A DNA stretch of 64,000 nt from Paludibacteraceae bacterium (GTDB lineage Bacteria; Bacteroidota; Bacteroidia; Bacteroidales; Paludibacteraceae): positions 11,439 through 75,438 of the forward strand of contig JAZNPR010000010.1 of NCBI GenBank assembly GCA_045589755.1, written 5' to 3'. The first letter of the stretch is position 1. Every line of letters begins with the position of its first letter. Position numbers and translations under genes: made by a program. The notes below the pieces were generated by a model that worked only from the letters and a program-made list of their open reading frames with translations, did no database searches and was not told where the DNA came from. Of the stretch, positions 42,821 to 61,197 are shown one piece after another.

Positions 42821-42920
42821 CCCTTACCCCTTACCCATTATCCCTTACCCATTATCCATTACCCATTACCCAATAGCCCGCAGGGCGTCCAATACCCCTT
42901 AGGCGGAACGCCGTCCAATA
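42821..42920 (+). repeat. composite intergenic repeat (CCCTTACCC/CCATTA words + 52-bp CCAATA core) overlapping the 3' end of the exosortase-like gene
   Basis: cccttaccccttacccattatcccttacccattatccattacccattacccaatagcccgcagggcgtccaataccccttaggcggaacgccgtccaatatg. The core matches the recJ insertion at 50 of 52 positions. Confidence 0.85.
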
Positions 42921-43450
42921 TGTGTCCACCACACCCACATGCCGAAGAGCATCAGGTAGAAGAGGTATTTGAAGACATATGTGTGCATCATCTCGAAGAG
43001 TTCGGGGTGATGTTCTATTATCAGGGTAATGAGTGCGATGCGCAATATATTGAATAGGTATATGGCGACGAAGCCGAGTGGGATAAACCACAATTTGCGC
43101 AGCCATTTACCGCGTGCTACGAGCATGATAATCAGCCAGATGAAGGATTGTTTTAGTGCGGTGCAGCTCCATACGATGCGCACGCTGGAACCGCTGTCAA
43201 AGCGCAGGATGTTGTTGGGCAGTTGATGAATGGTGTCGCGCACGAGGTGTACGGTCCAATAGACGGCATTGGCGATGTGTGTAGCGAGGAAATCGAATGG
43301 GGCGGTGATGTCGAGTCCGAACCATGTGACTTGCTCGCCTCCTTCGTCACCTAGCACGGTGTATTTCCAAAAGAAGTTCGCCGCCAGCAGTGCCACCACG
43401 AACAATATAATGTCCGTGTACGGAGCAATCTGTTTTTTCCAATCTTTCAT
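42899..43450 (-). CDS. exosortase/archaeosortase-family intramembrane protein (XrtF-like size)
   Basis: 183 aa from MKDWKKQ. Polytopic membrane protein carrying, in the expected order, the Cys context VRIVWSCTALKQ, the Asn-x-x-Arg context YLFNILRIALI, and a late His (MHTYVFKY), as in the exosortase Cys/Arg/His triad. The 36 upstream codons of the track ORF are probably not translated. Confidence 0.55.
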   Translation of the reverse strand: MKDWKKQIAPYTDIILFVVALLAANFFWKYTVLGDEGGEQVTWFGLDITAPFDFLATHIANAVYWTVHLVRDTIHQLPNNILRFDSGSSVRIVWSCTALKQSFIWLIIMLVARGKWLRKLWFIPLGFVAIYLFNILRIALITLIIEHHPELFEMMHTYVFKYLFYLMLFGMWVWWTHIGRRSA

Positions 43451-43515: not shown

Positions 43516-44535
43516 TTATATGCGGGTTTTTGCGTAGGGTGCGGCATCTACGGGGCAAAACTCCCCCTTCAGGTACTTGTAGTAGCCTGCTTGTGCCACC
43601 ATGGCGGCGTTGTCTGTGGTGTAGGCAAACGGTGGGATATGCACCTGCCAGTGATGGCGTTTGCCGAGGTCGATGAGCGCATCGCGCAGTCCGCTGTTGG
43701 CGCTCACGCCGCCTGCTACGGCAATCTCTTTTATGCCCATGTCTTTGGCTGCTTTCTTCAGCTTATTGATCAGAATATCGATGATAGTCTTCTGCAACGA
43801 AGCGCACAAATCCGCTTTATTTTCCTCGATGAAATCGGGGTTTTCTTTCAGTTGGCCGCGCAGGAAATAGAGGAACGAGGTCTTCAGGCCCGAGAACGAG
43901 TAGTTGTATTCGGGTATATGTGGTTTGCTGAATTGGAACGCCTCGGCATTTCCTTCTTTGGCAAGGCGGTCTATCCATGGACCACCAGGGTAGGGCAGTC
44001 CCATGATTTTCGCGCATTTATCGAATGCTTCGCCTGCCGCATCGTCTATCGTCTGTCCGATGATCTCCATGGTGTAGTGGTCTTTCACCAGCACAATCTG
44101 ACTATTTCCTCCACTCACCAACAAACACAAGAACGGAAAATTCGGAGCCTGATGCCCATGCTTCTCCTCGATGAAATGGGCCAAAATATGCGCTTGCAGG
44201 TGGTTGACTTCCACCAGCGGTATGCCTTGCGACAATGCCAATCCTTTGGCAAAACTGGTACCCACCAGCAGACTACCCAGCAACCCTGGTCCGCGTGTGA
44301 AGGCAATCGCGCTGAGTTGGTCTGCCGTCACGCCTGCGCGTTTGAGGGCGGCATCTACTACGGGAACGATATTCAGTTGGTGCGCGCGGCTAGCAAGTTC
44401 GGGTACTACGCCGCCGAACTCCTCGTGTACGCCTTGTGATGCGGTCACATTGCTCAACAGTATGCCGTCTTTGAGGACTGCTGCCGAGGTATCATCGCAG
44501 CTGGATTCTATTGCGAGAATAATGGTTTCTTTCAT
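43516..44535 (-). CDS. tsaD: tRNA N6-adenosine threonylcarbamoyltransferase TsaD
   Basis: ILAIESSCDDTSAAV, HxxxH-type LQAHILAH, SGGVSAN. 339 aa. Confidence 0.9.
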   Translation of the reverse strand: MKETIILAIESSCDDTSAAVLKDGILLSNVTASQGVHEEFGGVVPELASRAHQLNIVPVVDAALKRAGVTADQLSAIAFTRGPGLLGSLLVGTSFAKGLALSQGIPLVEVNHLQAHILAHFIEEKHGHQAPNFPFLCLLVSGGNSQIVLVKDHYTMEIIGQTIDDAAGEAFDKCAKIMGLPYPGGPWIDRLAKEGNAEAFQFSKPHIPEYNYSFSGLKTSFLYFLRGQLKENPDFIEENKADLCASLQKTIIDILINKLKKAAKDMGIKEIAVAGGVSANSGLRDALIDLGKRHHWQVHIPPFAYTTDNAAMVAQAGYYKYLKGEFCPVDAAPYAKTRI

Positions 44536-44668: not shown

Positions 44669-45787
44669 TTATAATTGACTTTCGGGGGGGGGTAATTTGC
44701 CAATCTTTATAAATTCAGTTGGCGTATGTCCTACGATTTTCGTGAAATGTCGCCATGCTGTAGCGCGCGACCGATAGCCTGCGTCGTAGAACAGGTCTTG
44801 CACATTGGCGTTGGGGTTGGTCAACAGACATTGACATATATAGTCGATGCGTCTGCGATGTAGCATGTCGGACAAACTTTCGAATCCCAACTCTTTGGCT
44901 GCCAATTGGATATACGTCCTATTGGTTCCCACGCTATGTACTATCTCATCTCCTGTCAGTTCGGGGTCTTGCCATATCTCAGGTTGGTCCATCAGTTCTT
45001 GCAGTTTTTGTGCCACATGGTTGATGGTTTGTTGCGTGCTTTCGGGCGTTTCGGCGGCTGCGTAATAGTCGCGTACTTTTTCCAGCGGCACATGCAGTCG
45101 CTCGTAGTGCTCCGCATAGACGATGAATACGGAGATTATCAGGTAGAAGACCTCGTGGATGATATATCCTACGAATATCTGAATGCAGCGACTGACTATA
45201 TAGGTGCAAACCATCAGAACGAGGCAAGCTGTGAGCAGGTCGATGTATTTTTGTATATCGGGATTCTTGTGCTTATTTCGCATGTGTATCAGTCCAATGC
45301 AATAAGGGATGAACAGGGCTACAAATGCGATACGGATATACACATTTGGTTCCGAGATATGTGTTTTCAGTTGTTCGATGCTGTAGATATTGGTTATATC
45401 TCCCAATGCGCTTAGTGCGATGATGGGTATTGCAACGAGCACCGAGGGCAGTAGTATCAGTGCTGTTCGTTTCAGTGTGAGCCAATGGGGGCGTATCAAT
45501 TCTGCAATATAGCACCAGATCAGGAAGAAAATATAGAATCCTGGTATGAAGATAATGGGTGAAAACAGTTTGTATGTGTCCAGTATGTTGGTATTTTCGA
45601 GTGTCATGATCATCTCTGTGCACGATGCAATGGCAGAAATGGCAAAGAAAATGAATATGTAGTACCACCTGTGATTATCGGGGGTATGGTGTCTGATGAA
45701 AATCAGGGAGGCAGCAGCCAATTGCATGAACACATGTATGCCCAATATCACGAGGTAGAGTACAGATGTCAGATAGGTAAAATTCAT
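44669..45787 (-). CDS. membrane-bound AraC-family transcriptional regulator
   Basis: About 6-7 N-terminal TM helices, then a C-terminal AraC HTH (...IVHSVGTNRTYIQLAAKELGFESLSDMLHRRRIDY...DAGYRSRATAWRHFTKIVGHTPTEF). Confidence 0.75.
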   Translation of the reverse strand: MNFTYLTSVLYLVILGIHVFMQLAAASLIFIRHHTPDNHRWYYIFIFFAISAIASCTEMIMTLENTNILDTYKLFSPIIFIPGFYIFFLIWCYIAELIRPHWLTLKRTALILLPSVLVAIPIIALSALGDITNIYSIEQLKTHISEPNVYIRIAFVALFIPYCIGLIHMRNKHKNPDIQKYIDLLTACLVLMVCTYIVSRCIQIFVGYIIHEVFYLIISVFIVYAEHYERLHVPLEKVRDYYAAAETPESTQQTINHVAQKLQELMDQPEIWQDPELTGDEIVHSVGTNRTYIQLAAKELGFESLSDMLHRRRIDYICQCLLTNPNANVQDLFYDAGYRSRATAWRHFTKIVGHTPTEFIKIGKLPPPESQL

Positions 45788-45811: not shown

Positions 45812-46153
45812 TTATTTCTTGGGATACAACAATCGGAACACAAACGTACGCAGCGATGCACATGGCTGTTTCTTTCGTTTGCGTGATTCTGTTATGTGTT
45901 TGCGGAAAATCCGCTCATATTCAGCGCGTTGGGTTGGGTCGGCCAGTTGCGTGTCCACCTCTTTCCACGTGTCACGAAAGCGCGCCTGCGCTTGTTGTTG
46001 TGCCTCAGTAGGATTGTCCACGCGATTGGGGTGATCCATACCTATGCCGTATAGTTGTCCCGTGTGCTTGTTGGCACGGATATAGATGCGCTCATTGCTG
46101 ATGAACTTGCCCGTGATTGAGGCAAATGGCGAAGAAGGTGTAATTTTTGACAT
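45812..46153 (-). CDS. small basic protein, paralog family copy 3
   Basis: 113 aa. N-terminus SSPFASITGKFIS and central NPTEAQQQAQARF align with the family at 57..742. Lies 24 nt upstream of the AraC-like gene. Confidence 0.5.
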   Translation of the reverse strand: MSKITPSSPFASITGKFISNERIYIRANKHTGQLYGIGMDHPNRVDNPTEAQQQAQARFRDTWKEVDTQLADPTQRAEYERIFRKHITESRKRKKQPCASLRTFVFRLLYPKK

Positions 46154-46288: not shown

Positions 46289-46681
46289 TTATTCCTGCTC
46301 TTTCGCTTGGGTGTATAGTACATGGAATATATACCCGTATAGTGTGGTGATTACTGGCTTGCGGCGCGATGAATAGGGCAAATGTTCATTGGAGGCAGCG
46401 GGTCGTTTATACGATGGATTATGCTTGTTTGTGTATGCAGCGAACTCTTTCTCCCACATGGCGCGTTTCTCCATATCCGCCATTTCGGCGTATGCTTGTT
46501 TGGAGATTTGACCAAAAAGCGACGAGTTGCGTTTTTGTGTTTCCGATGGTGGTTGCTCATTAGGGTGTGCAATCACGTATGCATGGGTGCGACCATTGCG
46601 CATGCGGTAGATCACTTGCTGGTGTTTAGATATCGCTCCAGCCACCGCCGCTACAGGAGCATCAAGAAGAATCTTTGCCAT
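46289..46681 (-). CDS. small basic protein, paralog family copy 4
   Basis: 130 aa. N-terminus APVAAVAGAISK, central PPSETQKRNSSLFGQISKQAY, C-terminus TLYGYIFHVLY. Same architecture as the other three copies. Confidence 0.5.
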   Translation of the reverse strand: MAKILLDAPVAAVAGAISKHQQVIYRMRNGRTHAYVIAHPNEQPPSETQKRNSSLFGQISKQAYAEMADMEKRAMWEKEFAAYTNKHNPSYKRPAASNEHLPYSSRRKPVITTLYGYIFHVLYTQAKEQE

Positions 46682-46752
46682 GATTGTTATGTTGTTGATC
46701 CGATTGTTTATATTGTTGTTTTATAATAGTTGTCTCTGTTGTCTTTATCCCT

Positions 46753-47181
46753 ATTTCAGTTTGCATATTTATTTTGTTTAGGGTTGCTAATGCGCAATGC
46801 GCATTCTTTCAACCCAAACAAAATAATCTCCTTGATTTTTATTTATTTTTGTAGCCCTCACAGAGGGCGTATTTTTGTTTCAAAAAAACATCCTTGAATT
46901 GACAAGAATTGACAACCCAATTGATGCCAATTGTCTTAATACTCACCCCGTTTCCCGCTTTTATATATTTCAGTTTGTATATTCATTTTGTTTGGGGTTG
47001 CTAATGCGCGTTGCGCATTCTTTCAACCCAAACAAAATAATCTCCTTGATTTTTATTTATTTTTGTAGCCCTCACAGAGGGCGTATTTTTGTTTCAAAAA
47101 AAACATCCTTGAATTGACAAGAATTGACAACCCAATTGACGCCAATTGTCTTACTAATCACCCTGTTTTACGCTTTCGCCT
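46753..47181. repeat. 2 x ~214-bp tandem direct repeat in the divergent control region
   Basis: Copy 1 is 46753-46966 and copy 2 is 46967-~47181, well over 90 percent identical by eye. Each copy carries a 12-13-bp stem (ttttgttt.gggtt / aacccaaacaaaa) enclosing the palindrome aatgcgca-a-tgcgcatt, the hairpin gccctc-aca-gagggc, and the direct words gaattgacaa x2 and ccaattg x2. Confidence 0.9.
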
Positions 47182-47659: not shown

Positions 47660-48139
47660 ATGAAACAACTGCACAACACATGGAATTTCATTCACCGACT
47701 CTGGTATAGAGCCGAATATGTCTCCGTGATATGCCTAATGTTGTGGCTATCTGTGCCTACTCAGGCACAAGTGTACTCTACTGCGCGATACTCTACTGCG
47801 CAAACCTACACATACGATATGCCATACGATGCCTACGACGCACAGTTTGGGGAAACGCAAGTGGAGCCCAACAATTATCAGCCCTATCGCTCGACTATCT
47901 ATGAGCCATTCAGCAATGCCAAACCTACTGGACCCCAACGCGGTGGTGCGATTGGCGAGGAGGAAGATGATGACGACAATTCAGAAGACGATTGGGTGGG
48001 CGATTTCGGTCACCCCAGTGACCCTAACCAGTCACAGAACAGCCCTGTAGGCGACGCTTGGGTGCTGCTACTTTTTGCAGCCGTTGCCGCAGGAGTGGTA
48101 TATAAGAAACAACGAACATTAACAACGAAAACATTATAA
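47660..48139 (+). CDS. small secreted/anchored protein with C-terminal SPVGD-TM-basic tail (cassette 1)
   Basis: ATG at 47660 (the track ORF starts at an upstream TTG). Signal-peptide-like VICLMLWLSVPTQAQ, an acidic run EEEDDDDNSEDD, and the tail NSPVGDAWVLLLFAAVAAGVVYKKQRTL. Lies 6 nt before the giant gene. Confidence 0.65.
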   Translation: MKQLHNTWNFIHRLWYRAEYVSVICLMLWLSVPTQAQVYSTARYSTAQTYTYDMPYDAYDAQFGETQVEPNNYQPYRSTIYEPFSNAKPTGPQRGGAIGEEEDDDDNSEDDWVGDFGHPSDPNQSQNSPVGDAWVLLLFAAVAAGVVYKKQRTLTTKTL

Positions 48140-48145
48140 AGCAAT

Positions 48146-51100
48146 ATGAAACACAATATACTCAAATCGCTCTTCATCGCAGCCATTTTCATGGCTGGAA
48201 CAACTAATGTATGGGCAGAGAAAGGATTTTTCGAAAGTGGACAATGGGATGTGTACTATTGGAACGGAAGCAATGACAAATGGGCTGGTTCTCATAACGA
48301 TGGTAGCACCTATGATTTAGGCATCCAAACGACTCTTTACTTAAAACAAGGCTGGGTAAAAACTTGGTCTAATAATAGTTGGACACAATCTGAAGTTGTA
48401 TGGTATTGGGGGTGGAATGACAACTATAGCAACAATTGGAAAACAAACAAGAGCAACGTACAGGGAGATCAAACATGGGATTTTGACATTAACGACTACG
48501 ACATGATTGGTAACGCCCCCAACAATCCTGGTCACAACACATTGTGCATGTATTGGCGATTAGATAATTACGTATCTTCAAAAGCAAGTTATATCAACTT
48601 CACCATCCCTGGTTTTACAACTACAAGCGCAAGCCAAACATTTGATAACACTACCGTTGGTAGCAGCAGTTCAAAAACAATTTCGTTTGGTACACACTAT
48701 GGAACAGCGTTAAAAACATCAAACTGCTCTATTGCGGGAACTAATGCATCGGAGTTTACGGTAACAAGCATAAACGAATCAGGCGTTACTGTTACGTTCA
48801 ATCCAACATCAGCAGGAAACAAGACAGCTACACTAACTATCACAGATGCACACAGCAAGAAATGTACTATTACACTAAGTGCTAAAACCCAATACACGGT
48901 AACTTATTCAAAAGGCAACTACGGAACAGGAAACAACGTAACCGATAACAAAGTATATGGTACAGCTTTGACCCTCAAAGATAAAGGTAACTTCACTCGT
49001 GAACATTACACACAAACAGCTTGGAATACTAATGCAAATGGTACAGGAGGAACATCGTATGCTTTGAAAGCGAGTTATACACAAGAAGCAGCCCTGCAAC
49101 TTTATCCAACTTGGACTCCAATAGAATACCAAATTACCTACCACCACATTGACGGTGCCACACACACAAACCCCACCTCTTACACTGTAGAGACGCCTAC
49201 TTTCACCCTGCAAGCGCCTACTAAAGAGCTCTATACCTTTGAGGGCTGGTATCAGCAAGCAGATTTCAGCGGGGATAAGGTGACCCAAATCACCGAAGGC
49301 ACTACAGGCAACATCGACCTCTATGCCAAATGGTCAGAGACCAAATACTCCGTAAATATCTACTCCAACAATAGCCATTATGGTATCACCACTCCCAGCG
49401 GAGCTAATTGGGTAGGTCCTACTCCTGTAGAAATCACCGCTATCCCTCATAACGGCTATCGCTTTACCCATTGGACTACCACAGGCGGCGCTTCGATTGC
49501 CGATCCGAACAGCGCAACCACCACTATCACAGCTACCGCTACGGGTACAGTCCTCGCCCACTTCGTGGAGAGCCTCTTCCCCATTACCGTTCAGTCGTCC
49601 AACATCGCTCACGGCAAAGTTACCCAATCCGCCACACAAGCAGGCGTAAGCACCGCCATCACTATCACCGCAGACCCAATAGAGGGATTTGAGTTCACTG
49701 GTTGGAGCAAAGATGGCGACATCACTATCGCCAATATCAATAGCGCAACTACTACCCTCACCGCTACAGGTGAAGGTACCGTCACCGCAAACTTCGCACC
49801 AAAAGGTAGTACGCCTATTTATTTCAGAGCAAATCACGCATGGACAGCATCTAAGGCGTGGTTTGCTGTGTATTATTGGGAAACTGGCAAAGACCCAGGT
49901 TGGAGTGTACTCAATCCTATTTGCGGTAATGACTACTACAAAGCCGAAGTACCCGCTGGATATACAGGATTTAAGTTCGTGCGTTTCAGACCTTCAACAG
50001 CTGATGGATATAACTCTGATAATGGTGGTCTGAACTGGACTAATCCATGGAATCAATCAGGCGATCTTGTCGTGCCTACCGATGGAAAGACTATGTTTGA
50101 TACCAAGAAAGTATATCTCAAGCCCAATGACAAATGGAAAACGGATAATATGCGTTTTGCGGCATACTTCTATGTATCAAGCAATGATAGCAAAAACAAG
50201 TGGATGAACATGGAATTAACAAGCATAGATGGCGTATATTCATGTGATATTCCTACCGAATACGAAAGTGCTGATGACTACAACCATGTTATCTTCTGCC
50301 GCATGGATCCAAGCAAAGAAGAAAACAATTGGGACAACTGCAAGAATCAATCAGATAACTTTAAGTTATTTAGCACTGAGAGTGGAACTTTCGACAAGAA
50401 CTGCTTTACCTTATGGAACGACCAATGGGGTAACAAAAGCCAACCTGCCACGGGCTACTGGTCCCTCGTCAACGACGAAGCTACCTACGACGTAACACTC
50501 TACTCTTGTTCGTTTGGTGAGTATGGCTTTATCTACAATAACGTAGAGTACACCTCTCCCGAATCTGGCAATATCACCTACCAAATACCTATCAATGCGA
50601 CTGTCAAAGTGTTTAGCAGACCTTATAGCAAGGAGTACCGCGGAGATGTGATGGTAAACCAATCTGGTACCAAATGGGAAATCACACCAGACAACCCTCT
50701 GCTCAACATTACTTGCAACACTATCCTCGACGACAACTACAAGACTACTGGCGAACACGAAGTGTATCTGGCAGTGCCTAATAACAGTGGTTCATGGGTA
50801 ACGAATGAAGCTACACTCCACTACCTCTACGCTTTCCACGACCGAACAGAATCGGGGCAAGGCATACCCGTTCAGATGACCGAAGTAGGACACGCAAATG
50901 TCGAATTAAATTCACAAAACGTGGACCACATCTACTATCGCTGCGTAATCCCTGCGGAAGTCAATACTATCCGCTTCGAAAAACGCTCTAACGCTACAAC
51001 TACTGTTCTCAGTACCATCGACCTGCGCTACGACATTCCGCTTAATAGCGTAAACTGCTACCGACTCGATAGAAAAGAAGATGCAAATAGCAACCAAAGT

Positions 51101-53461
51101 TACGCAGGCGTTTGGGAGCAAGCCCCAGGCTTCGGCGGCGACTTCCGTCTTGTACATCACCGCGCGAGTGGTGTGACATACACCTCTGACGTTATCCGCC
51201 ATGGCACAATATCGCAAGTAGTGAGTATGCACATCTACCCTGTGGATGCAAATGCTGGGTACCCCAAACTGGAACTCCAACAATGTGTCAATGGTAATTG
51301 GGTAACCGTAAGCGGACAAACCAAACTGGTGAAGGACATCAACAAAATTATGAACGACCAACAAGACAATGGTTGCGGTGTATGGAACTTTACCGTCACT
51401 ACCGATGGCGGCGACAAAGCCGAGGTGAAGTTCAGCACCCCACAACGCTACACGGGCAACTACTATATCCGCACCAACAATGCCGAAGGCGAATGGCGCA
51501 ACTATACCCTCAGCACCAACCACATGACCTTCTCATCCTACGCTAAGAACCATAGCGAATATACCCACTATTTCTGCCGTTACATAGATGTTATAGATAA
51601 TAGCAAAGTACCAGGTCACAACAAGAACGTGAAGTTTATCATCGCCAACGATTATGCAGCTGTTCTCTCCAACGAGATGACTGGCGACGAACATACCACC
51701 TCAGGCGGTGACCTTCCTGAGAGTGCTAACGTGCGCTGGACATGGAACGAAGTGACCAACACAGTCTCCCGCGCGTATATATTAGGTTCGCACGGAAGCT
51801 ATGACCATATCGTTGCAAATGGCAATCGTCTCAACGACCAAGAAGACTGGATATATGAGATTGACATTAAGAATGTAACCAAGGGAACTCTGCTTGATAT
51901 TCAGGCTACATACCCTTCTACAACAAAGGACGGTGTATTGCCTCTAACCCAAACCTTTGCCGAAGACTTGGAGATGATTCACACTGATGCTGGCAACTCC
52001 AACGAATACACCGTGCGCGTAATGTACGACTTCAAGATCAACAAGACCCTCATCATGCTCCTACCCGATCAAGCTGATCCTGCCAATATCGGTGTGGATG
52101 TGCTCATTGACCGCACCGACCAAGGCGAAGCAACACAAGTACAATCTACAGTTACAAGCAACAAGGGCTACACCGTATATTCTACCCTGACGCTGACGAA
52201 GGATCACCTGCTCGGCAATGGTACCGAATGGGAACGCCTCTACTATTGGATTTCCTTCCCATTTGATGTGCGTATCTCCGAAATCTTTGGTTTTGGCGAG
52301 TACGGCAAGCATTATATCATACAATACTACGACGGTGCCGAACGTGCTAAGAACGGTTGCTGGGCAGATAGTCCTACCTATTGGCGACAAATCACCGACA
52401 CTACCTACTCCGCGCGTAGCGAAGATGCCAATGGCGGAAACGAAGACGCCAATGGCAACCCTAACAACGGTATCCTCGTAGCCAACAAGGGTTATGTATT
52501 GGCGCTTGCACGAAACATTGCTAATAGCAATATCTTCAAACATGGCAATGAATACGTGCGCCTCTACTTCCCATCGCGAGAGAAAATCTATAGTATCAAT
52601 GGTGATATACAAAATACCTCTGTCTATCTCATGCCACACACTTGCACCATCACGCGCGAAGACCGTAATATCTACGATAGCAACTGGCATATCATAGGTG
52701 TACCTTCCTACGCAGACAAAACGCAGACACTCACACAAGACGACATGCTCTACTACTATACCTACAACACCAGCAACAATACCTATAGTGTGACTTCGGC
52801 GAAGGATGTGCAAGTAAAATTCAACTCCATGCAAGCTTATATGGTGCAGTTTGCAGGAAACATCAATTGGCAATCGACATGGGAGTTGCAACCGCAACAA
52901 ATCCTCGCACGCCGTACCGCGGAGATGCCTGACCACTACTCCCTCCGCCTCGAACTCCAACGCGATGGTCAATATGCCGACCAGACCTTTATCCAGCTGC
53001 AAGCCGAAGGCGCTACCACGGACTACGATATGAATCAAGACCTGACGAAGATCATCAACACAGGTGCAAACATCTACACCCTCGCAGGCGAGAAGCATAT
53101 CCAATTGGCTGGTAATGTGCTACCTTCTGCCAAGACAACTATCCCTGTAGGCGTACAAGTGGCTCAGGCAGGCACTTACACCTTCGCACTACCTGACGGT
53201 ACCAGTGGCATCAGTGCCACCCTTGTGGACAACCTCTCGGGCATACACACCAACCTGCTGCTGGACGGCTACACCGTCACCCTCGATGCAGGTGCCACAG
53301 AGGGTCGTTTCTATATCGTGCTCGACCCAGACCGCACTGCGACTGCTGTAGAGAACATCGGCGATGCACAAGGCGATAAGACACAGAAGTTCCTCATCGA
53401 CGGACAACTCATCATCAAGCATGATGGCATTAAGTATAACGTACAAGGCGAAAAACTTTAA
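48146..53461 (+). CDS. giant (1771 aa) secreted protein with Listeria-Bacteroides (InlB B-repeat-like) repeats, CBM-like modules and a T9SS CTD
   Basis: Signal peptide. Repeats such as YTVTYSKGNYGTG...YTQTAWNT.ANGTG, YTFEGWYQQADFSG, NGYRFTHW, EGFEFTGW. Two modules resemble starch-binding-like beta-sandwiches (IYFRANHAW..WFAVYYW; VYLKPNDKW..FAAYFYV). The tail TAVENIGDAQGDKTQKFLIDGQLIIKHDGIKYNVQGEKL is T9SS CTD-like. Confidence 0.8.
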   Translation: MKHNILKSLFIAAIFMAGTTNVWAEKGFFESGQWDVYYWNGSNDKWAGSHNDGSTYDLGIQTTLYLKQGWVKTWSNNSWTQSEVVWYWGWNDNYSNNWKTNKSNVQGDQTWDFDINDYDMIGNAPNNPGHNTLCMYWRLDNYVSSKASYINFTIPGFTTTSASQTFDNTTVGSSSSKTISFGTHYGTALKTSNCSIAGTNASEFTVTSINESGVTVTFNPTSAGNKTATLTITDAHSKKCTITLSAKTQYTVTYSKGNYGTGNNVTDNKVYGTALTLKDKGNFTREHYTQTAWNTNANGTGGTSYALKASYTQEAALQLYPTWTPIEYQITYHHIDGATHTNPTSYTVETPTFTLQAPTKELYTFEGWYQQADFSGDKVTQITEGTTGNIDLYAKWSETKYSVNIYSNNSHYGITTPSGANWVGPTPVEITAIPHNGYRFTHWTTTGGASIADPNSATTTITATATGTVLAHFVESLFPITVQSSNIAHGKVTQSATQAGVSTAITITADPIEGFEFTGWSKDGDITIANINSATTTLTATGEGTVTANFAPKGSTPIYFRANHAWTASKAWFAVYYWETGKDPGWSVLNPICGNDYYKAEVPAGYTGFKFVRFRPSTADGYNSDNGGLNWTNPWNQSGDLVVPTDGKTMFDTKKVYLKPNDKWKTDNMRFAAYFYVSSNDSKNKWMNMELTSIDGVYSCDIPTEYESADDYNHVIFCRMDPSKEENNWDNCKNQSDNFKLFSTESGTFDKNCFTLWNDQWGNKSQPATGYWSLVNDEATYDVTLYSCSFGEYGFIYNNVEYTSPESGNITYQIPINATVKVFSRPYSKEYRGDVMVNQSGTKWEITPDNPLLNITCNTILDDNYKTTGEHEVYLAVPNNSGSWVTNEATLHYLYAFHDRTESGQGIPVQMTEVGHANVELNSQNVDHIYYRCVIPAEVNTIRFEKRSNATTTVLSTIDLRYDIPLNSVNCYRLDRKEDANSNQSYAGVWEQAPGFGGDFRLVHHRASGVTYTSDVIRHGTISQVVSMHIYPVDANAGYPKLELQQCVNGNWVTVSGQTKLVKDINKIMNDQQDNGCGVWNFTVTTDGGDKAEVKFSTPQRYTGNYYIRTNNAEGEWRNYTLSTNHMTFSSYAKNHSEYTHYFCRYIDVIDNSKVPGHNKNVKFIIANDYAAVLSNEMTGDEHTTSGGDLPESANVRWTWNEVTNTVSRAYILGSHGSYDHIVANGNRLNDQEDWIYEIDIKNVTKGTLLDIQATYPSTTKDGVLPLTQTFAEDLEMIHTDAGNSNEYTVRVMYDFKINKTLIMLLPDQADPANIGVDVLIDRTDQGEATQVQSTVTSNKGYTVYSTLTLTKDHLLGNGTEWERLYYWISFPFDVRISEIFGFGEYGKHYIIQYYDGAERAKNGCWADSPTYWRQITDTTYSARSEDANGGNEDANGNPNNGILVANKGYVLALARNIANSNIFKHGNEYVRLYFPSREKIYSINGDIQNTSVYLMPHTCTITREDRNIYDSNWHIIGVPSYADKTQTLTQDDMLYYYTYNTSNNTYSVTSAKDVQVKFNSMQAYMVQFAGNINWQSTWELQPQQILARRTAEMPDHYSLRLELQRDGQYADQTFIQLQAEGATTDYDMNQDLTKIINTGANIYTLAGEKHIQLAGNVLPSAKTTIPVGVQVAQAGTYTFALPDGTSGISATLVDNLSGIHTNLLLDGYTVTLDAGATEGRFYIVLDPDRTATAVENIGDAQGDKTQKFLIDGQLIIKHDGIKYNVQGEKL

Positions 53462-53465: not shown

Positions 53466-56400
53466 ATGAAAAAACTTCTTCTAATCATAGCAGCGGCGAT
53501 ACTATCCCTCGCCCTCATCCAAGCCCAAACAACCGATGGTTACCTCACCAGTGGTGATATTGTAAGTATTAGGTTTAGTTATCCTAACTGGAACATAAAC
53601 AATATGTACCTACAACTCTCCCAACAAGGTATAGGTTCGATTGGTTATCCTGACGAAAACTGCTTGTGGCGTCTGGGTATTGTGGAGAATGGCAATAGTT
53701 ATCAATACACTTTCGAGCATGTCGCTACTGGACTGTACCTTAGAACACAGACCACATCTGCACTGCAAACTGCCGATATCGTAACAGGTAATGCGAGTAA
53801 TAGAACAGCATTCAGATTTGATTGTACAGAAAGAGTCAAGGATAGTTATTTGAGAGGACAATTGGGCTGTGTAATTGTGATACCATCATGGGGAAATGCA
53901 CAAGTATTTGCTTGTTTGACTTCAACCAATGGTTTGCTGCAATTCTGTCCATGGAATCAATTTGACGTATATATTGAGAAATGGACACAATCAGGTTCGG
54001 GTGATGGCACCTTAAAAGGATATTTCTCGCCTGAGTTGCAGAAGTTTGGTTTGGCTAAAGACGATGCCGCAGCACAAGCACAGGCGAAAGACGTTAAGTT
54101 TGTATTCCCAACCCATATCCACTCATCCTTCCACTGTGTCAATCGTCCCGAATTGGTATTGGGTGGCTCGGAAGAAGAGGTTACCACTTTCCCTACACCT
54201 ACCTTCTATTGGAAATCCCAAGGCAAGAACGGCAACAAGATCTCAGTACTTAACCCTGCCAATTATCAAGTACCTGCAGGTGCGCCTGCTATTGAAGGGC
54301 GCAATATGCTTCAGGTGAACACACCTACACAAGACGCAAACGACAACAACATCTGGAACTTCACCATCACGCCACTCAATAAAAGCCCCAAAAACCTCCA
54401 ACACAAAGATAAATACGGTACCTATCGTTGGGTAAACTATATGGACACCCTGGTAGCAGAATACACCTACGACGGTAAAAACTACGCAATAGAAATGCTC
54501 GTGGAGCGCAATTCCTACCACGAAGAGGAATTGCCATCGCTTGTTATTTCGGTTAACCCTCATAGTTATACTTTTGCTCGAACTGCCGAGACGCTAAACA
54601 TTCAAGTAACAGCCGTGCACCAACATGGTACAGTAGTCTATGACGTAGAAGGCAATGCGGTAGAAACTATCTATGCCGATAGCATTACCCCTAACCCAGC
54701 CCAACTATCAACGATAAATGGCAACGGCTGGACAACCACGTTAGAAATAGATTATGGTAGTGGAGAACAAGATTGGATTACCAGTCCTCAAGTCGTTGAT
54801 AACAACACTATTCGGGTTGCAGTGCCAGATCACAACGGCAACAAACGCTCTGCTGTATTGAAAGGCACATTAACTGAAGATACACGACATGGGCATGAAG
54901 GCACGTTCGAGGTGCAACTCCACCAACGCGGTAAGGAAGGAGGAATACAATTCATCACTCAACCTGGTTTTGGTGCATCCGACTCACTTAAGAATATATG
55001 GGGCAACCGCAAGGATCCGCAACCTGTTCACACTGCCGAGCGTACGATTTATTATACCAAAGGACAACAGATCGAACTGAAACTCGCTGAGTCGGGCTTC
55101 TCTGGCTATATGCGTTGGTACGACTACGAAACAGGCGGCAACCCACACTACAACGACCGACATGGTGCAAACTACCCATCTACCGACTGGCACACACAAC
55201 CTCGCACTGCCAATGGTCATTGGTTCGTGAATATTAACACACCACAAAATAGTACAACTGTTAGTGACGAAGGCTACTCATACGGATTATATGCACTGCA
55301 CAAAAATGCCAAAGACAAAGCGGGTCGCCAACTATCAGCCAATCTGGGTGCAATATTGGATGAAACATATAAGACCAACGACCGTCTCGCTCAGCCTGCA
55401 CCTATCCTCTATGGTTGGAACTATACCTACAATGCCAACGCAGCTACCCCAGATGATAAACGTGCTGCGGGCTACCACACCATGGCATGCGATGTGAGCG
55501 CATATACCGATTATACTATCTGGACAAGTCAAAATGGAGCACGTATAGATAGTATCAAAGAGCCCACACTTTCCTATCGCCAACTCTTCCACCTCAAGCC
55601 AGCAGAAGAGATAGCGGATAAGTTTGCAGCATTAGCTGAAAACGAATACCTCGAGGAGTACCACTATATGGCACCTGTCGGACCAGACGTATATCTATCC
55701 ACCGAGTTCCGCCATGCTGCTAAACAACCTGAGACGGAGAAATGTTACTTCTATTGGAAAGACGGAGTGAAAAATGGCACCTTACTTCGTGTGAATGGCA
55801 CTGCGCGTTGGTATGACCAAAATGGCAACAATATTACCCCTGGCACCTATAACGCCAAGGACTATCTGGACGTGGATGCCCAATCACCTGGCACTAAAAC
55901 CTACTACCTACGCGTACCTAATGCTTTCGGAACAGGACAACACTTAAACATTGCCAAGTTTACCGTAGAGTTTATGCACGCTAACGCTTGTGGTCCATCT
56001 GCTGGACTGATCTCTATGGAGCAAATACGCGCACAATATAAGGTGTTAGAGTATATCGACTTTAGTTTTGGAGCCCCAGCACCTGGTACAGACAACGAAC
56101 GTGCATTGCGCACACCTCTCCCTTGGACGTATGCGACCTACGGATTTGTCTATCCAAGCGACATCAATGGCGATGGAAATGCGGACTATGTACGTGGTGA
56201 TAGCCAAGGTGAGTTCCCATACTTCGGCGAGTACCGATTGGTAAACAAAGTTAATAAGAACTTCGGCGGAGATGCAGGTGTTAGTGGCGATAATCACGGT
56301 GGCGCAGCCAACGGATATGCCATGTATGTGGACGGAACCATGGAACCTGGTATGGTGGCAAGTATCTCTACCAAAGCAGTCATCTGCTCCGCTCAGACAA

Positions 56401-59400
56401 TGTATTGCTCCATGTGGTTACGCAACCCAAGCTCCACCGCACACAGCGGTGCGTTGCCTATCTTCCGTTGCAATATCCAAGGACGCAAGAAGACAGACCA
56501 AAAAGATGCACAGGGAAAAACTATCTATACCGAATGGGAAGATGCAGGAGTGTTCTTCGTGGGAAGTATTGATAAAAACTCTGGCTGGAGACAGATTCTC
56601 TTCCCTGTCAATTCGGCGAACAACTACGACGAGACACGCGTATCGCTCTACAACTTCGCTACCGACAACATGGCGAACGACTTCATGATTGACGACATCT
56701 GCCTCTTTGTATCGCAATTGCCATTTGCTGCCTATCAAGGTAAAATGGCATGTCGTACTACCGCTGATAGCAAGACAAACGCCGTGGCTGTGCTCCGTCT
56801 TGACTACAGCAATATCGACAAGGATAACGATGGTTATATGTACTACCAAGTATATAATGAGAACCTCAAAACAGCCGTCAACCTCTCTGGCGATGCAGCC
56901 TACTACCACGAAGCCCATCAAGGCGACCATACAGCAGAAACCTACTATGGTTCCGTAGCAATACCCGAGCAAAGCTACAAACCAACTACGTACTACCAAT
57001 CTGTCACTAAGTTCTTGGACGACCTGATGGCAAGTGGCGAAAAAAACGGTATTGCCTATGTACGTGTAGTGAACGAAGGTATTGATAAGTATCTACTCTA
57101 TGTAGGACATATCATTGAGAATACAGATGCTCCTAATAAAGCAGGCGAATTGCTCTACTCGGGACACGAATATACGCTGCGTATGGCACATACACCCAAC
57201 GAGTTGGACAAAGCAGAGTGCAATATGCGTACACCACTCCACGCAACGCAAGCCACTTACTTCCAATTAGATGATTCCGAAGAAAACTACTGGGACGACA
57301 TCCAGTCCACTTCCTATGACCATTGCGCGAACCAACTCTATTTCCTTACCTCGAAAATCAAGAATAGTTTAGCACTGAATGCTGGTGGAGATATAGAGAA
57401 TTTAGTAGCACCTATTCAATCCGACTGGCTTGTGCTATACGATACATGGAAGGAAATCAATGTATATGCCGAAGCAGTACCTACGGATAATGAAGAACTA
57501 AAAGATTACAACGCACGTTTGGCTGTAGCCGACACCCTCTTCAAACAGAAATATACCTACACGCGCGGACAGATAGCCAATGCTATCCTCCACGACATGC
57601 GACGCATACCTACCGCGGACGACCCTAACCCCAACTACTATGCACGCTCATTCAAGGAATTGGATCCTAACCATTTCCAGACCCATGCTAACTATCAAAT
57701 CATCAAGCACCTGTGCGACAATGATTGGCTGGAGATGCACAAGACCACAACTTTCTTCTTCCTCGGCGCACAAGATACTACTCGCTACTTGGTTTATCCG
57801 ATAGAAGGAACAGCCGAAGCGAAAATGAGTAATGGTACTTCTGTCGTCCTCAAAGACTGTAAGGAAGAGCGCTACGTAGCTATCAGTTCGATGGATTGGG
57901 CATACCACCTCAACGCAACACCTATCCCACACGAGGAGAAAACAGCCCACGAGAGTATGCAATTGCCGACCGTGAAAGTGCTACTCGACAATATCCACAA
58001 TGTGCAAATACCTATCACCGACCTCTTTACTGATAATGATACGCATATTAAGATTGGTGGCAAGGCATACACCCACGGCGCGACGATTACCATTGACCTG
58101 AGCAATTTGCCCGCCTACATGACCTATATGGATATGAATACGGGTAAACCTATGAACAAGCCAACACTTGAAGTCGGCAAAGAATATACTCTCCGACTGC
58201 AATACAACAACGCAAACGATAGCCCTACCAATGATGCTAATAGCGATAAAGCTAAGGATGGCAAATGCCCTGTGGGCTATGTGTTCTTCCACCTACTAGT
58301 AATCCCTAACACTATGGTATGGACACCAGAAGGAGCATCATTCAACGGTTGGGGCAAGAACGAGAACTGGCGCGGATGGAAGGACACCAATGGCAACGCC
58401 ATCATTGATGAGGATGAACTCACCGAGGGCTATGTACCTATCAGCGGCTCCGATGTCATCGTTCCTAAACTTGACAACTCGGCCCTTTATCCATACATCG
58501 TACCAGAGGAGGAGCACAACCACTATGAGATGACCATCAACTTCGACCCACACCACTGCCGAAACATCTACTTCCAAGTAGGAGCACAAATCAATAACCA
58601 GCACATGCTCCACTACGAGAAAGCCTTTGTGGATATGTACGTTCCTGCTGCCAAATGGAACATGATGGCATCACCACTCCAAGAAGTATATTCTGGCGAT
58701 ATATTCATACCACACACCTCCTATGGCATGGTTGAGAATCCCGAACCATTTGAGATAGCCGCATGGGAAGGAAAACGCTATAGCGATGCACCATACGCCT
58801 TCTGGCAAGCACACTTCAACAAGACCGTCACTACCCATTACAGCTCAGGCGCTACGACCACCGCACTATCCAGCAATACCGCCGAGTTTGCACAAACCAA
58901 TAGCCTCGACGTACTACTCGAACCAGGTACAGGCTTCCAACTACAGGGATATGGCCCTAATAACAACGCATCCGACTCCCTCATTGTGCGCCTACCTAAG
59001 AACGATAACCAATACTTCTACTACTCCTCTCGTGGCGAGCAGACCGACCGCTATGCCACCATCCCTCGCACCAGCAACACGGGCAAACTGGCATACGATA
59101 ATAGAAGTACTAACGGCGAGAAAACCATCGTCCTACGTGGCGAAGAAGAATCCAACTACTTCGTCTTTGGTAACCCAACCATGGCATACATCGACTTGGT
59201 ATCTTTCATGGAAACGAACAAAGACATTAAAGCGGTTTACCAAATGAGCAGCAACACGTGGTTGGCAAACACCGACCTCTCTATGTACCAAACAGCCGAC
59301 CGCTATCTGGCACCTACACGCTCTATTCTCGTAGAGGTGGAAAATAGCAGTACCACTCTGACGCTGACCCTCAAGCCTGAGCATCTCACACTAACCAACC

Positions 59401-60179
59401 TTTCTCCAAAGGCAGAGGCAGAGCGAAGAAATGAACGCCGACGCACACCAAGCGTTGACAACAACGATACCCACCTAATGACTATCTACGCCTTCAACAC
59501 CAAAGGTATTGCACGTAGCATAGTAGCATACAACGAATATGCCAACAACGACTACCAACAAGGCGAAGATGCACTCTTCCTATCCACAGGTATCGACACC
59601 AAGGCAGAGACCAATACTCCAACATCGCCTATCAACCTCTACTCGCTACACAACCGCGTACCAATGATGGTGGATATGCGCGAAAACATCGATACTATCC
59701 CACTGGGAATGCTCGTGAGCCCTAACCACCGCACCGCAAAAATGCAGATGGCATTCTACCTCTCACAAGATTGGGACAAGACGTGCTACCTCTATGATGC
59801 ACAAACCAATACCAGTACACGTATCATGGACGGACTCTTGCTCACATTGGACATGCCATTCAACCACGAGAATCGCTATTATATCGTTGGTCCTGACCGC
59901 ACTTCCAACGGCGAAGATATTGTGACTAATCTTCCGAACGTTAATCAGGGCGATATACACGTTTGGGCATACTCCGAGCAAGCGGGCAATATCACAGTCT
60001 GCTCCAACGATATTATCCAGTCGGTAACCGTATATGACATCACAGGTCGCCTTGTGGGGCATAAGACCCTCGACTTGCTCTATAATCAGGTATCGTTACC
60101 AGTAGGTCAAGGTGTACATATCGCCGAAGTTACCCTCCGCGACAACTCCAAACACTACACCCGCGCTATTGTCAAATAA
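53466..60179 (+). CDS. giant (2237 aa) T9SS-secreted protein, function unknown (paralog of 61198..)
   Basis: The start MKKLLLIIAAAILSLALIQAQ is 4 nt after the upstream stop. The C-terminal ...ITVCSNDIIQSVTVYDITGRLVGHKTLDLLYNQVSLPVGQGVHIAEVTLRDNSKHYTRAIVK is a T9SS type-A CTD. There is an internal jelly-roll-like signature NDFMIDDICLF. I recognise no catalytic motif. Confidence 0.8.
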   Translation: MKKLLLIIAAAILSLALIQAQTTDGYLTSGDIVSIRFSYPNWNINNMYLQLSQQGIGSIGYPDENCLWRLGIVENGNSYQYTFEHVATGLYLRTQTTSALQTADIVTGNASNRTAFRFDCTERVKDSYLRGQLGCVIVIPSWGNAQVFACLTSTNGLLQFCPWNQFDVYIEKWTQSGSGDGTLKGYFSPELQKFGLAKDDAAAQAQAKDVKFVFPTHIHSSFHCVNRPELVLGGSEEEVTTFPTPTFYWKSQGKNGNKISVLNPANYQVPAGAPAIEGRNMLQVNTPTQDANDNNIWNFTITPLNKSPKNLQHKDKYGTYRWVNYMDTLVAEYTYDGKNYAIEMLVERNSYHEEELPSLVISVNPHSYTFARTAETLNIQVTAVHQHGTVVYDVEGNAVETIYADSITPNPAQLSTINGNGWTTTLEIDYGSGEQDWITSPQVVDNNTIRVAVPDHNGNKRSAVLKGTLTEDTRHGHEGTFEVQLHQRGKEGGIQFITQPGFGASDSLKNIWGNRKDPQPVHTAERTIYYTKGQQIELKLAESGFSGYMRWYDYETGGNPHYNDRHGANYPSTDWHTQPRTANGHWFVNINTPQNSTTVSDEGYSYGLYALHKNAKDKAGRQLSANLGAILDETYKTNDRLAQPAPILYGWNYTYNANAATPDDKRAAGYHTMACDVSAYTDYTIWTSQNGARIDSIKEPTLSYRQLFHLKPAEEIADKFAALAENEYLEEYHYMAPVGPDVYLSTEFRHAAKQPETEKCYFYWKDGVKNGTLLRVNGTARWYDQNGNNITPGTYNAKDYLDVDAQSPGTKTYYLRVPNAFGTGQHLNIAKFTVEFMHANACGPSAGLISMEQIRAQYKVLEYIDFSFGAPAPGTDNERALRTPLPWTYATYGFVYPSDINGDGNADYVRGDSQGEFPYFGEYRLVNKVNKNFGGDAGVSGDNHGGAANGYAMYVDGTMEPGMVASISTKAVICSAQTMYCSMWLRNPSSTAHSGALPIFRCNIQGRKKTDQKDAQGKTIYTEWEDAGVFFVGSIDKNSGWRQILFPVNSANNYDETRVSLYNFATDNMANDFMIDDICLFVSQLPFAAYQGKMACRTTADSKTNAVAVLRLDYSNIDKDNDGYMYYQVYNENLKTAVNLSGDAAYYHEAHQGDHTAETYYGSVAIPEQSYKPTTYYQSVTKFLDDLMASGEKNGIAYVRVVNEGIDKYLLYVGHIIENTDAPNKAGELLYSGHEYTLRMAHTPNELDKAECNMRTPLHATQATYFQLDDSEENYWDDIQSTSYDHCANQLYFLTSKIKNSLALNAGGDIENLVAPIQSDWLVLYDTWKEINVYAEAVPTDNEELKDYNARLAVADTLFKQKYTYTRGQIANAILHDMRRIPTADDPNPNYYARSFKELDPNHFQTHANYQIIKHLCDNDWLEMHKTTTFFFLGAQDTTRYLVYPIEGTAEAKMSNGTSVVLKDCKEERYVAISSMDWAYHLNATPIPHEEKTAHESMQLPTVKVLLDNIHNVQIPITDLFTDNDTHIKIGGKAYTHGATITIDLSNLPAYMTYMDMNTGKPMNKPTLEVGKEYTLRLQYNNANDSPTNDANSDKAKDGKCPVGYVFFHLLVIPNTMVWTPEGASFNGWGKNENWRGWKDTNGNAIIDEDELTEGYVPISGSDVIVPKLDNSALYPYIVPEEEHNHYEMTINFDPHHCRNIYFQVGAQINNQHMLHYEKAFVDMYVPAAKWNMMASPLQEVYSGDIFIPHTSYGMVENPEPFEIAAWEGKRYSDAPYAFWQAHFNKTVTTHYSSGATTTALSSNTAEFAQTNSLDVLLEPGTGFQLQGYGPNNNASDSLIVRLPKNDNQYFYYSSRGEQTDRYATIPRTSNTGKLAYDNRSTNGEKTIVLRGEEESNYFVFGNPTMAYIDLVSFMETNKDIKAVYQMSSNTWLANTDLSMYQTADRYLAPTRSILVEVENSSTTLTLTLKPEHLTLTNLSPKAEAERRNERRRTPSVDNNDTHLMTIYAFNTKGIARSIVAYNEYANNDYQQGEDALFLSTGIDTKAETNTPTSPINLYSLHNRVPMMVDMRENIDTIPLGMLVSPNHRTAKMQMAFYLSQDWDKTCYLYDAQTNTSTRIMDGLLLTLDMPFNHENRYYIVGPDRTSNGEDIVTNLPNVNQGDIHVWAYSEQAGNITVCSNDIIQSVTVYDITGRLVGHKTLDLLYNQVSLPVGQGVHIAEVTLRDNSKHYTRAIVK

Positions 60180-60235: not shown

Positions 60236-60338
60236 TCCTTGCCGCGGCAGGGAGTGCGGGGGCCCCGAAAAAGCCTCCTGCTTTTTGGGGTGCTTTTGAT
60301 TGCCGCGGAATGTTGTCTATGTTGTTTTCTTACCCAAC
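60236..60338 (+). repeat. 103-bp direct repeat copy A
   Basis: tccttgccgcggcagggagtgcgggggccccgaaaaagcctcctgctttttggggtgcttttgattgccgcggaatgttgtctatgttgt... Outer stem CCGCGGCA/TGCCGCGG, inner stem ccccgaaaaagc/gctttttgggg. Confidence 0.9.
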
Positions 60339-60387
60339 TGACTCCTTGTTTCCGTGTCCATCCGTGTCATCCGTGGGCGGTTATATC

Positions 60388-60490
60388 TCCTTGCCGCGGC
60401 AGGGAGTGCGGGGCCCCCGAAAAAGCCTCCTGCTTTTTGGGGTGCTTTTGATTGCCGCGGAATGTTGTCTATGTTGTCTTCTTAACCAAC
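60388..60490 (+). repeat. 103-bp direct repeat copy B
   Basis: Near-identical to copy A (period 152 bp). The differences are ggggg/cccc versus gggg/ccccc plus two substitutions near the end. Confidence 0.9.
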
Positions 60491-60671
60491 CGCATTCCTT
60501 GTTTTTGGTTGGGATAGTTTAGATTTCTGCCCATTAGGGCAAGGATACATTTAGTGTCAATACGAATATACATTTCTTAAAAAATGTTGCAAAATCCATA
60601 AGAAATGTGATGTTTTGCCAAAATGAAACACTTATTTGCTGCCATAAAACATAGTTTTAGGGAAAAAGCAG

Positions 60672-60679
60672 TACTTTTG
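60672..60679 (+). promoter_or_regulatory. -7 box TACTTTTG for cassette 2
   Basis: Exact TAnnTTTG match 24 nt upstream of the ATG at 60703. Confidence 0.5.
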
Positions 60680-60702
60680 CACGGAATTTCGGATTTTCCA
60701 AA

Positions 60703-61185
60703 ATGTTTGAACCAACAACTACATATACTCCTATCACTTCTTCTGCTTTAACAAGCAGTAAGAGTATCATGACGAGCAACCACTCGTCATCGTTTGTGGT
60801 GAGTACCAGTTTGGGTAGCAGTTTCAATAGTCACTCATCATCGACAGTTGCTCCTATCTCGGTACGTACATCGGATAAGACGATTCGTTCCTTCTCGACG
60901 GGTGGCGTATATGAGTATGTTATTCCTAAGGGTGTAGGTTCGTTTGTGAGGATGCATCGGGATAACGTAACGCTAAACTCATACGGTTCTGGCGTTCAAC
61001 CGCCGCGTCGCTCAATAGCGTTCCCTGGAGAAGACTACGAAACACCACCTACAGGTGAGTTGGATCCAGATTTTGCGAGTCCAGTAGGTGATGTATTGTT
61101 GCCAATGCTGTTGATGGCATTTGTGTATGCCACTATTCGTTTTTTTAAGAATCGTAAACTTCAAAAATCGATAAATAATCAGTAA
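60703..61185 (+). CDS. small protein with C-terminal SPVGD-TM-basic tail (cassette 2)
   Basis: 160 aa with a Ser/Thr-rich N-terminal half and no obvious signal peptide. The C-terminal half aligns with 47660..48139 (P-x-R..I..GE(E/D)...DP.F.SPVGD). The tail is ASPVGDVLLPMLLMAFVYATIRFFKNRKL. Lies 12 nt before the next giant gene. Confidence 0.65.
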   Translation: MFEPTTTYTPITSSALTSSKSIMTSNHSSSFVVSTSLGSSFNSHSSSTVAPISVRTSDKTIRSFSTGGVYEYVIPKGVGSFVRMHRDNVTLNSYGSGVQPPRRSIAFPGEDYETPPTGELDPDFASPVGDVLLPMLLMAFVYATIRFFKNRKLQKSINNQ

Positions 61186-61197
61186 ATTCCTATCCCA

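Follow-up and report, generated by a model that had tools for sequence, protein, structure and literature searches.

How a C-terminal tail shared by two otherwise unrelated small proteins is used, and whether a membrane enzyme removes it, is the question raised by a 64,000-nucleotide stretch of Paludibacteraceae bacterium DNA (contig JAZNPR010000010.1 of assembly GCA_045589755.1, positions 11,439 to 75,438; hereafter the window, in whose numbering all coordinates are given). Its two genes small A and small B encode proteins that end in a short motif, a hydrophobic helix and a basic cluster, and an earlier note on this DNA had read this ending as a candidate sorting signal, pointing to an exosortase-family gene 4 kb away. 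The interpretation is supported in part. The P-x-G-D/helix/basic tail is a new, strongly conserved C-terminal module, and its architecture and novelty hold as described; the proximity argument is discounted, and dependence on the exosortase is plausible but somewhat doubtful. The strongest association of a tail gene is not with the exosortase but with the gene of a giant secreted protein next to it. A retained helix, serving as an anchor or recognition element for that giant, is preferred over a removed one by a slight lean and held with about even confidence.

Small A (47660..48139, forward strand, stop codon 48137..48139) encodes 159 amino acids (aa) comprising a clear signal peptide (...LWLSVPTQAQ), an acidic low-complexity region with the sequence GPQRGG, and the tail at 48041..48115. 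The latter consists of SPVGD (48041..48055), the helix AWVLLLFAAVAAGVVY (48056..48103) and KKQR (48104..48115), and reads in context ...NSPVGD-AWVLLLFAAVAAGVVY-KKQR-TLTTKTL before the stop. Small B (60703..61185, forward strand, 160 aa) is Ser-rich and carries ISVRTSDK and PPRRSI motifs; it has no signal peptide and no in-frame extension upstream within the window. Its tail (61078..61158) is built from SPVGD (61078..61092), the helix VLLPMLLMAFVYATIRFF (61093..61146) and KNRK (61147..61158), in the context ...ASPVGD-VLLPMLLMAFVYATIRFF-KNRK-LQKSINNQ, followed by the stop. When the two proteins are compared by BLASTP, the tails alone align (13/28 identical, E = 4e-4 for the pair), and with the tails removed the A and B profiles show no detectable homology (hhalign probability 0.4%). 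A six-frame pattern scan of the window located SPVGD-type tail sites in small A and small B only, and the hidden Markov model (HMM) of the family tail scores 72.6 bits for small B (E = 1e-20) and 49.8 bits for small A (E = 2e-13). Open reading frames (ORFs), BLASTP and HMM thus agree on the common tail that the earlier note had described. The basic cluster had been placed at the extreme C-terminus; 7-8 residues come after it in the window, and typically 3-8 in relatives, so that it lies near the end of the protein, not at it. AlphaFold2 predicts small B to be disordered (mean predicted local distance difference test score, pLDDT, 52.6) except for a helix at residues 129-158 that starts at the Gly-Asp of the motif, and a sequence search of the PDB gave no match for the small proteins.

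Could the resemblance be a matter of chance, or the ORFs non-coding? The low complexity of the protein bodies is the only feature pointing that way, and the idea is refuted by HMM E-values of 1e-13 to 1e-20, by hundreds of homologs conserved at the amino-acid level, and by a fixed tandem position next to giant genes with gaps of 1-55 nt; its probability is negligible.

A tail profile of 42 columns was compared by HMMER with 1.84 billion (1.84e9) cluster representatives at E ≤ 1e-3, and 187 representatives matched. The tail therefore belongs to a large family, and the prospect, raised in the earlier note, that only these two proteins carry it is ruled out. Among the 150 matches listed of the 187, nearly all are 44-330 aa long with the tail at the C-terminus, and there is no large enzyme or adhesin; the long exceptions are P0360 and P0377, apparent fusions of a small protein with a giant, and P0267 and P0269, which match in multiple stretches. 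An initial search with both small proteins had yielded 197 small relatives, all without a Pfam domain, which formed two types, A and B, with the tail as their sole common region (homologs of small A include P0012, P0018 and P0059-P0076). A 45-aa tail profile, used in one more search of a large protein set, matched 13 short fragments only. A scan of metagenomes for the tail pattern gave 79 loci, mostly on contigs from rumen and gut metagenomes by name; each tail ORF in them is small, and the tail finishes 1-18 residues before the stop. The best explanation of these data is that the tail marks an uncatalogued, lineage-restricted superfamily of small (~100-230 aa), disordered, single-pass membrane proteins, whose hosts are best explained as uncultured gut and rumen Bacteroidales with records labeled Paludibacteraceae.

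The consensus of the tail is S-P-[VI]-G-D-[AVM]-[LVW]-[LI]-P-[LM]-L-L-M-A..Y..VV...R-x-R-K. Across 142 representatives, the motif positions are occupied by S (45%), P (97%), V or I (61 and 28%), G (100%) and D or E (81 and 17%, together 98%). The helix itself is conserved at P+7 (78%), A+12 (80%) and Y+15 (60%), and the basic cluster contains R in 66%. The distance from motif to stop has its mode at 31 residues (range 25-49), with the stop 3-8 residues past the basic cluster. The 20 residues preceding the motif are acidic; the net charge is about -2 before the helix and +3.7 after it. As a negative control, the plain helix-plus-basic C-terminal anchors that GldG-like proteins carry in related loci reach 8-17 bits with the family HMM, versus 48-72 for members. 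By a hydrophobicity heuristic, a signal-peptide-like N-terminus is present in 65 of 114 full-length representatives (~57%), and ~40% lack one.

Two further features of the small proteins may be recorded here. In 43 of the 142 representatives, a loose G-P-R-[RK]-like motif (GPRR/PPRR-like) occurs ~15-30 residues before the PxGD and is followed by an acidic run. Its instances in the window are GPQRGG at 47930..47947 in small A and PPRRSI at 61003..61020 in small B, and it may mark another site of function or processing. Upstream of small B, and in another frame than it, lies a short forward-strand ORF (60623..60751) beginning MKHLFAAIKHSFREK; in many homologs its equivalent is fused in frame to B-type proteins (e.g., P0055-P0058, P0101). 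This ORF is not hydrophobic and hence supplies no signal peptide, and it may represent a conserved leader region or 5' untranslated region.

A further common feature is found in the genes adjacent to the tail genes. Small A is followed after 6 nt by giant 1 (48146..53461, forward strand, 1771 aa), which has a signal peptide, Listeria-Bacteroides (Flg_new) repeats and a C-terminal ...KFLIDGQLIIKHDGIKYNVQGEKL motif. Giant 2 (53466..60179, forward strand, ~2237 aa from MKKLLL) has a signal peptide and a sub-threshold type IX secretion system (T9SS) type A/C C-terminal domain (CTD), its C-terminal fragment scoring 20.6 bits against TIGR04183 with a cut-off of 23. Small B is in turn followed after 12 nt by giant 3 (61198..64000, forward strand), a paralog of giant 2 that also has a signal peptide and continues past the end of the window. 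The same adjacency recurs in each context examined, that is, for both genes of the window, for two pairs in the related locus L001, and in L003, L007 and L011, with further cases in L013, L016, L101 and L103. Of the metagenome loci, 15 extend at least 3.5 kb beyond the tail gene in both directions, and all 15 have an ORF of 1748-2923 aa on the same strand no more than 150 nt away, encoding a secreted protein and located either upstream or downstream of the tail gene. Two types of module can be distinguished. In the first, signal-peptide-bearing small proteins stand beside giants with Flg_new repeats, which end in the motif K-x-[LV]-x-[DN]-G-Q-[LM]-x-I-...-G-x-x-Y-...-G-x-x-[VL]; in the second, Ser-rich B-type proteins without a signal peptide come before giants whose T9SS type A CTD is sub-threshold. 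Tail proteins and giant secreted proteins are thus coupled genetically in an essentially one-to-one manner. The tail is carried by non-homologous A and B bodies, with two copies in the window, yet all bearers are small and giant-associated.

A parallel is offered by Flavobacterium, in which sprF (PorP/SprF family), a cargo-specific T9SS accessory gene, lies next to the giant adhesin gene sprB. The likeness lies in the tandem layout, with a single accessory gene for each giant secreted protein. It does not extend to the proteins: those of the SprF type are outer-membrane β-barrels, whereas the small proteins described here are disordered, single-pass and without sequence similarity to SprF. The one weak PorP-family match among 122 family members (E = 0.0098) is not meaningful.

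Some side observations concern the giants. An end motif of ~25 residues, K-x-[LVI]-x-[DN]-G-Q-[LM]-x-I-x-x-x-G-x-x-Y-x-x-x-G-x-x-[VL], of which KFLIDGQLIIKHDGIKYNVQGEKL is an example, is found on many secreted proteins, both giants and proteins of 280-700 aa. It occurs in the window at 53386..53461, the C-terminus of giant 1, and elsewhere in L013:4089-8360, L016:3509-9970, L101:2127-9989, L150:10101-11864, L178:10642-12735 and L103:15851-19563. The NCBIfam models of T9SS C-terminal domains do not match it at E ≤ 10, and a role as an uncatalogued signal for secretion or attachment is possible. Small A and giant 1, and likewise small B and giant 3, are in the same frame, separated by one stop and 2-4 codons (48137..48148 and 61183..61200). 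In P0360 (2016 aa), an A-type small protein and its giant are joined in frame, and P0377 appears similar; these observations could reflect readthrough, a sequencing error or coincidence.

Is the tail a known sorting signal? Searches of Pfam, NCBIfam (release 20.0) and PHROGs gave nothing above cut-off for the window proteins, the isolated tails or the 122 family members. The NCBIfam sorting-domain models did not match the window tails at E ≤ 10, a Pfam scan of small A and small B, with PEP-CTERM (PF07589) included, was without a match at E ≤ 0.1, and the T9SS CTD models TIGR04183 and NF033708 left the small proteins unmatched. Likewise, nothing on a PxGD motif was found in the literature searched for XrtX and for exosortases in Bacteroidota and Prevotella. 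The absence of any curated Pfam, NCBIfam or PHROG model covering the tail bears out the statement that no SPVGD-type signal has been described. Below threshold, the 122 members match JDVT-CTERM (17), Loki-CTERM (15), MYXO-CTERM (6), GVDTG (4) and PGAP-CTERM (4), and in Pfam PEP-CTERM (7, best E = 0.083) and the LPXTG anchor Gram_pos_anchor (5). These matches reflect likeness of architecture, not membership, and are probably an effect of composition.

The layout of the tail is indeed the tripartite one of the exosortase, archaeosortase and rhombosortase sorting signals that had been invoked for it, a resemblance to the generic form of such signals; the distance from motif to stop is 31 residues at the mode. 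As in PEP-CTERM proteins, sorted by XrtA/EpsH, a short motif at the outer edge of the helix is combined with a single C-terminal helix and a basic cluster near the stop, the bearers are often small low-complexity paralogs, and the same genomes encode a membrane-embedded member of the exosortase family in which Cys, Arg and His are conserved. The differences are equally distinct. The motif is P-[VI]-G-D and not P-E-P, the helix is itself sequence-conserved, and the tail occurs solely on small proteins that are paired with giant genes and of which ~40% lack a signal peptide. In addition, no exopolysaccharide genes were seen next to the tail genes or next to that of the enzyme, and the enzyme, a mini form of 183 aa, passes the generic family signature alone. 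The layout is also shared with JDVT-, Loki-, MYXO- and GlyGly-CTERM and LPXTG signals, from which the tail differs in motif, host lineage and cognate enzyme, the matches being far below cut-off.

The candidate sorting enzyme for the tail is the 183-aa exosortase/archaeosortase-family membrane protein encoded at 42899..43450 on the reverse strand. The earlier note was right to regard it as a family member. It scores 62.4 bits against TIGR04178 (cut-off 23), is slightly under the cut-off of Pfam Exosortase_EpsH (24.0 vs 25.7), and its residues C95, N133, R136 (N-x-x-R), H147 and H155 are invariant across 28 exosortase homologs at 58-90% identity. It fails the cut-off of each specific Xrt model, the best being XrtX (NF046081; 80.7 vs 170). 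It is not XrtF, which the earlier note had named in this connection, the score against TIGR04128 being 41.6 with a cut-off of 90. With XrtF and XrtX the enzyme shares the phylum, a similar size (~170-190 aa) and the catalytic signature; unlike them, it falls below both cut-offs and has tsaD as its conserved neighbor rather than the gene of the XrtF-associated membrane protein. In the window, the neighboring genes are tsaD and a DHH phosphoesterase gene and not that of an XrtF-associated protein, the neighbors not having been scanned with the model of the latter.

The family of this enzyme comprises homologs in at least 779 clusters. With one genome taken per species of the GTDB, it was detected in 366 species, and the counts of genomic context refer to the best 80 of these 366, almost all Paludibacteraceae- or Bacteroidales-labeled metagenome-assembled genomes (MAGs) from ruminant and other animal guts. 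The exosortase of L021 is 94% identical to that of the window, and L021 is probably the closest relative of the window organism. In 70 of 76 species, tsaD (43516..44535, reverse strand, in the window) lies directly upstream of the exosortase gene on the same strand, which suggests that the latter is co-transcribed with this housekeeping tRNA-modification gene. The pair persists without a cassette of tail and giant genes within 10 kb in L005, L006, L010 and L012. L010, L011 and L012 encode an identical exosortase protein, and of these L011 alone has a cassette, 2 kb off and on the other side. Of the 80 species, 10 have a tail gene, as detected with the tail HMM, no more than 10 kb from the exosortase gene; seven of them are closely related, a single clade, and show the arrangement of the window, and L058, L071 and L097 have a second arrangement in common. 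A third was observed in L035 (L035:3114-13834), in which the exosortase gene lies 87 nt downstream of the gene for a 2260-aa giant on the same strand, with tsaD on the opposite strand. Next in L035 come the genes of an AraC-type protein, of a small B protein and of another giant, and the exosortase gene is thus embedded between two cassette halves.

The distance of 4 kb, on which the original argument leaned, is weak support, because the enzyme gene is tied to tsaD, the cassette is variably present, and none of the 79 tail-centered metagenome loci contains the enzyme gene, although most of these are short and only about nine hold ~10 kb on both sides. By our own estimate, about a dozen tail genes scattered over a 3-Mb genome would give ~10 in 80 by chance, which makes the proximity uninformative. 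The tail gene and the exosortase gene nevertheless occur together in at least 11 MAGs, in one of which they are on separate contigs (L046 and L103), and where sources are named, both families derive from the same Paludibacteraceae/Bacteroidales MAG lineage. Such co-residence is a coarse co-distribution and not a test.

How probable is it, then, that PxGD-helix-basic is an exosortase-type signal, a "PxGD-CTERM"? The tsaD-linked 183-aa enzyme would recognize the tail within the membrane, cleave at the PxGD and release or transfer the acidic, disordered peptide to the envelope for the neighboring giant. This is possible, but we hold it as the less probable reading. It would account for the tripartite architecture and the strictly C-terminal placement of the tail, for its being the sole region common to non-homologous bodies, and for the concentration of sub-threshold matches on CTERM sorting models. 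The enzyme passes its family signature with Cys, Arg and His retained, resides in the same lineage and MAGs, and lies in three gene arrangements no more than 10 kb from a cassette. Set against this are the tie of the enzyme gene to tsaD with or without a cassette nearby, a frequency of neighborhood close to that estimated for scattered tail genes, its absence from the tail-centered loci, its scores below every specific Xrt cut-off, the many bearers without a signal peptide, small B included, and the fact that, among the listed matches, the tail is not seen on diverse cargo. A precedent comes from Flavobacterium johnsoniae, in which xrtF and its associated gene (Fjoh_1449 beside Fjoh_1448) are needed for surface colonization, biofilm and zorb formation, and xrtF-mutant phenotypes match those of T9SS porU/porZ mutants; the substrates of XrtF are unknown and, according to the authors, probably unlike PEP-CTERM proteins (PMC10936215). 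This precedent keeps the exosortase-substrate reading alive.

Alternatively, the tail may be a processing or sorting signal for some other membrane enzyme, such as a rhomboid/rhombosortase-like protease, a glutamic protease of the CPBP/JDVT type or a T9SS factor, the exosortase being unrelated. The strongest sub-threshold resemblance is indeed to JDVT-CTERM, whose cognate enzyme is a CPBP-type protease and not an exosortase, the tight link with T9SS-type giants suggests a secretion-related partner, and a rhomboid gene is present in one related locus, L005. Yet when 122 ORFs flanking tail genes were clustered, they proved to encode additional secreted proteins and GH88-type enzymes, along with AraC-type regulators and housekeeping proteins, with no recurrent protease or other membrane enzyme that would provide a specific candidate, and the matches to sorting models are far below cut-off and probably due to composition. 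An enzyme of this kind is therefore considered unlikely.

The reading to which we incline slightly, at about even confidence, is that the tail helix is retained, as an anchor or recognition element serving the neighboring giant. The helix would insert into the cytoplasmic membrane such that the acidic juxtamembrane stretch faces outward and the R/K cluster inward, the charge pattern predicting an N-out/C-in orientation. The P-x-G-D cap together with the Pro-kinked, conserved helix (P+7, A+12, Y+15) may form a recognition surface for a membrane-embedded partner, as the invariance of the cap and the conservation of the Pro-containing helix point to specific recognition by something in the membrane. 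The variable, disordered ectodomain would then work with its own giant as an escort, tether or display adaptor. Confinement of the tail to small proteins, the near-obligate pairing with giants and the 0/79 loci with an exosortase gene support a retained helix, as does the ~40% of members without a signal peptide, a proportion unusual for known exosortase substrates. The predicted disorder of small B outside its helix and the lack of any other recurrent membrane enzyme among the 122 flanking ORFs count on the same side.

Several points weigh against retention. A short invariant motif exactly where a C-terminal helix ends on the outside, followed by a basic stop-transfer patch and soon by a stop, is the signature of processed sorting signals such as PEP-CTERM, PGF-CTERM, GlyGly-CTERM and LPXTG, and CTERM sorting-domain models dominate the sub-threshold library matches of the 122 members. 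Helix-breaking Pro and Gly in or before the helix are typical of substrates of intramembrane enzymes, and the cytoplasmic tail (~7-12 aa) is too short for signaling. The same lineage also has an exosortase-family enzyme without an identified substrate, which shares those MAGs with the tail genes. Finally, the role of the small protein toward the giant is pure inference.

To our knowledge, no substrates have been identified for XrtF and other small Bacteroidota exosortases since these were defined, and a tail module found only in a lineage that also carries an exosortase offers a candidate substrate class for them. If the tail were the substrate signal of the tsaD-linked mini-exosortase, it would give the XrtF- and XrtX-related small exosortases of Bacteroidota their first assigned class of substrates; the small acidic peptides would be envelope adaptors for giant T9SS-type proteins, and exosortase sorting would be functionally linked to type IX secretion. 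Irrespective of the enzyme, the tail genes constitute a new accessory-gene family, each member matched to one giant surface protein, in rumen and gut Bacteroidales that are abundant but uncultured. The pairing provides a handle for annotating such loci and for studying how adhesins of several thousand residues are exported and displayed.

The remainder of the locus bears on a last explanation. A housekeeping stretch around tsaD and the exosortase-like gene, with genes for the DHH phosphoesterase, a peptidyl-prolyl isomerase and a GldG-like protein, is followed by the gene of a multi-pass membrane AraC-type (HTH_18) regulator (44669..45787, reverse strand) and by two small basic ORFs of 113 aa (45812..46153, reverse strand) and 130 aa (46289..46681, reverse strand); small A, giants 1 and 2, small B and giant 3 diverge from these. 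Both small basic ORFs are conserved cassette members that belong to no Pfam or PHROG family, and the regulator travels with this type of cassette. Together, the three accompany B-type cassettes elsewhere as well (L001, L007, L011, L021-L030, L035, L071, L097, L107 and L116). B-type proteins, which lack a signal peptide, might accordingly be tail-anchored regulators that touch the AraC-type membrane regulator helix-to-helix and control the giant genes, the tail being an interaction motif. Members with the same tail, however, have signal peptides and stand beside giants with no AraC-type gene near (L013, L101), and the charge distribution predicts the same N-out orientation in both classes; a regulatory role of this kind appears more improbable still than the involvement of another membrane enzyme.

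Finally, tandem direct repeats were observed in the intergenic regions of the cassette. Upstream of small A (46752..47176) there are two units, 89-96% identical, at a spacing of ~214 bp, and upstream of small B (60236..60490) two 103-nt copies, 97% identical, lie 152 bp apart. Rfam and tRNA checks of these repeats gave no match near the cassette, and the repeats may be regulatory.

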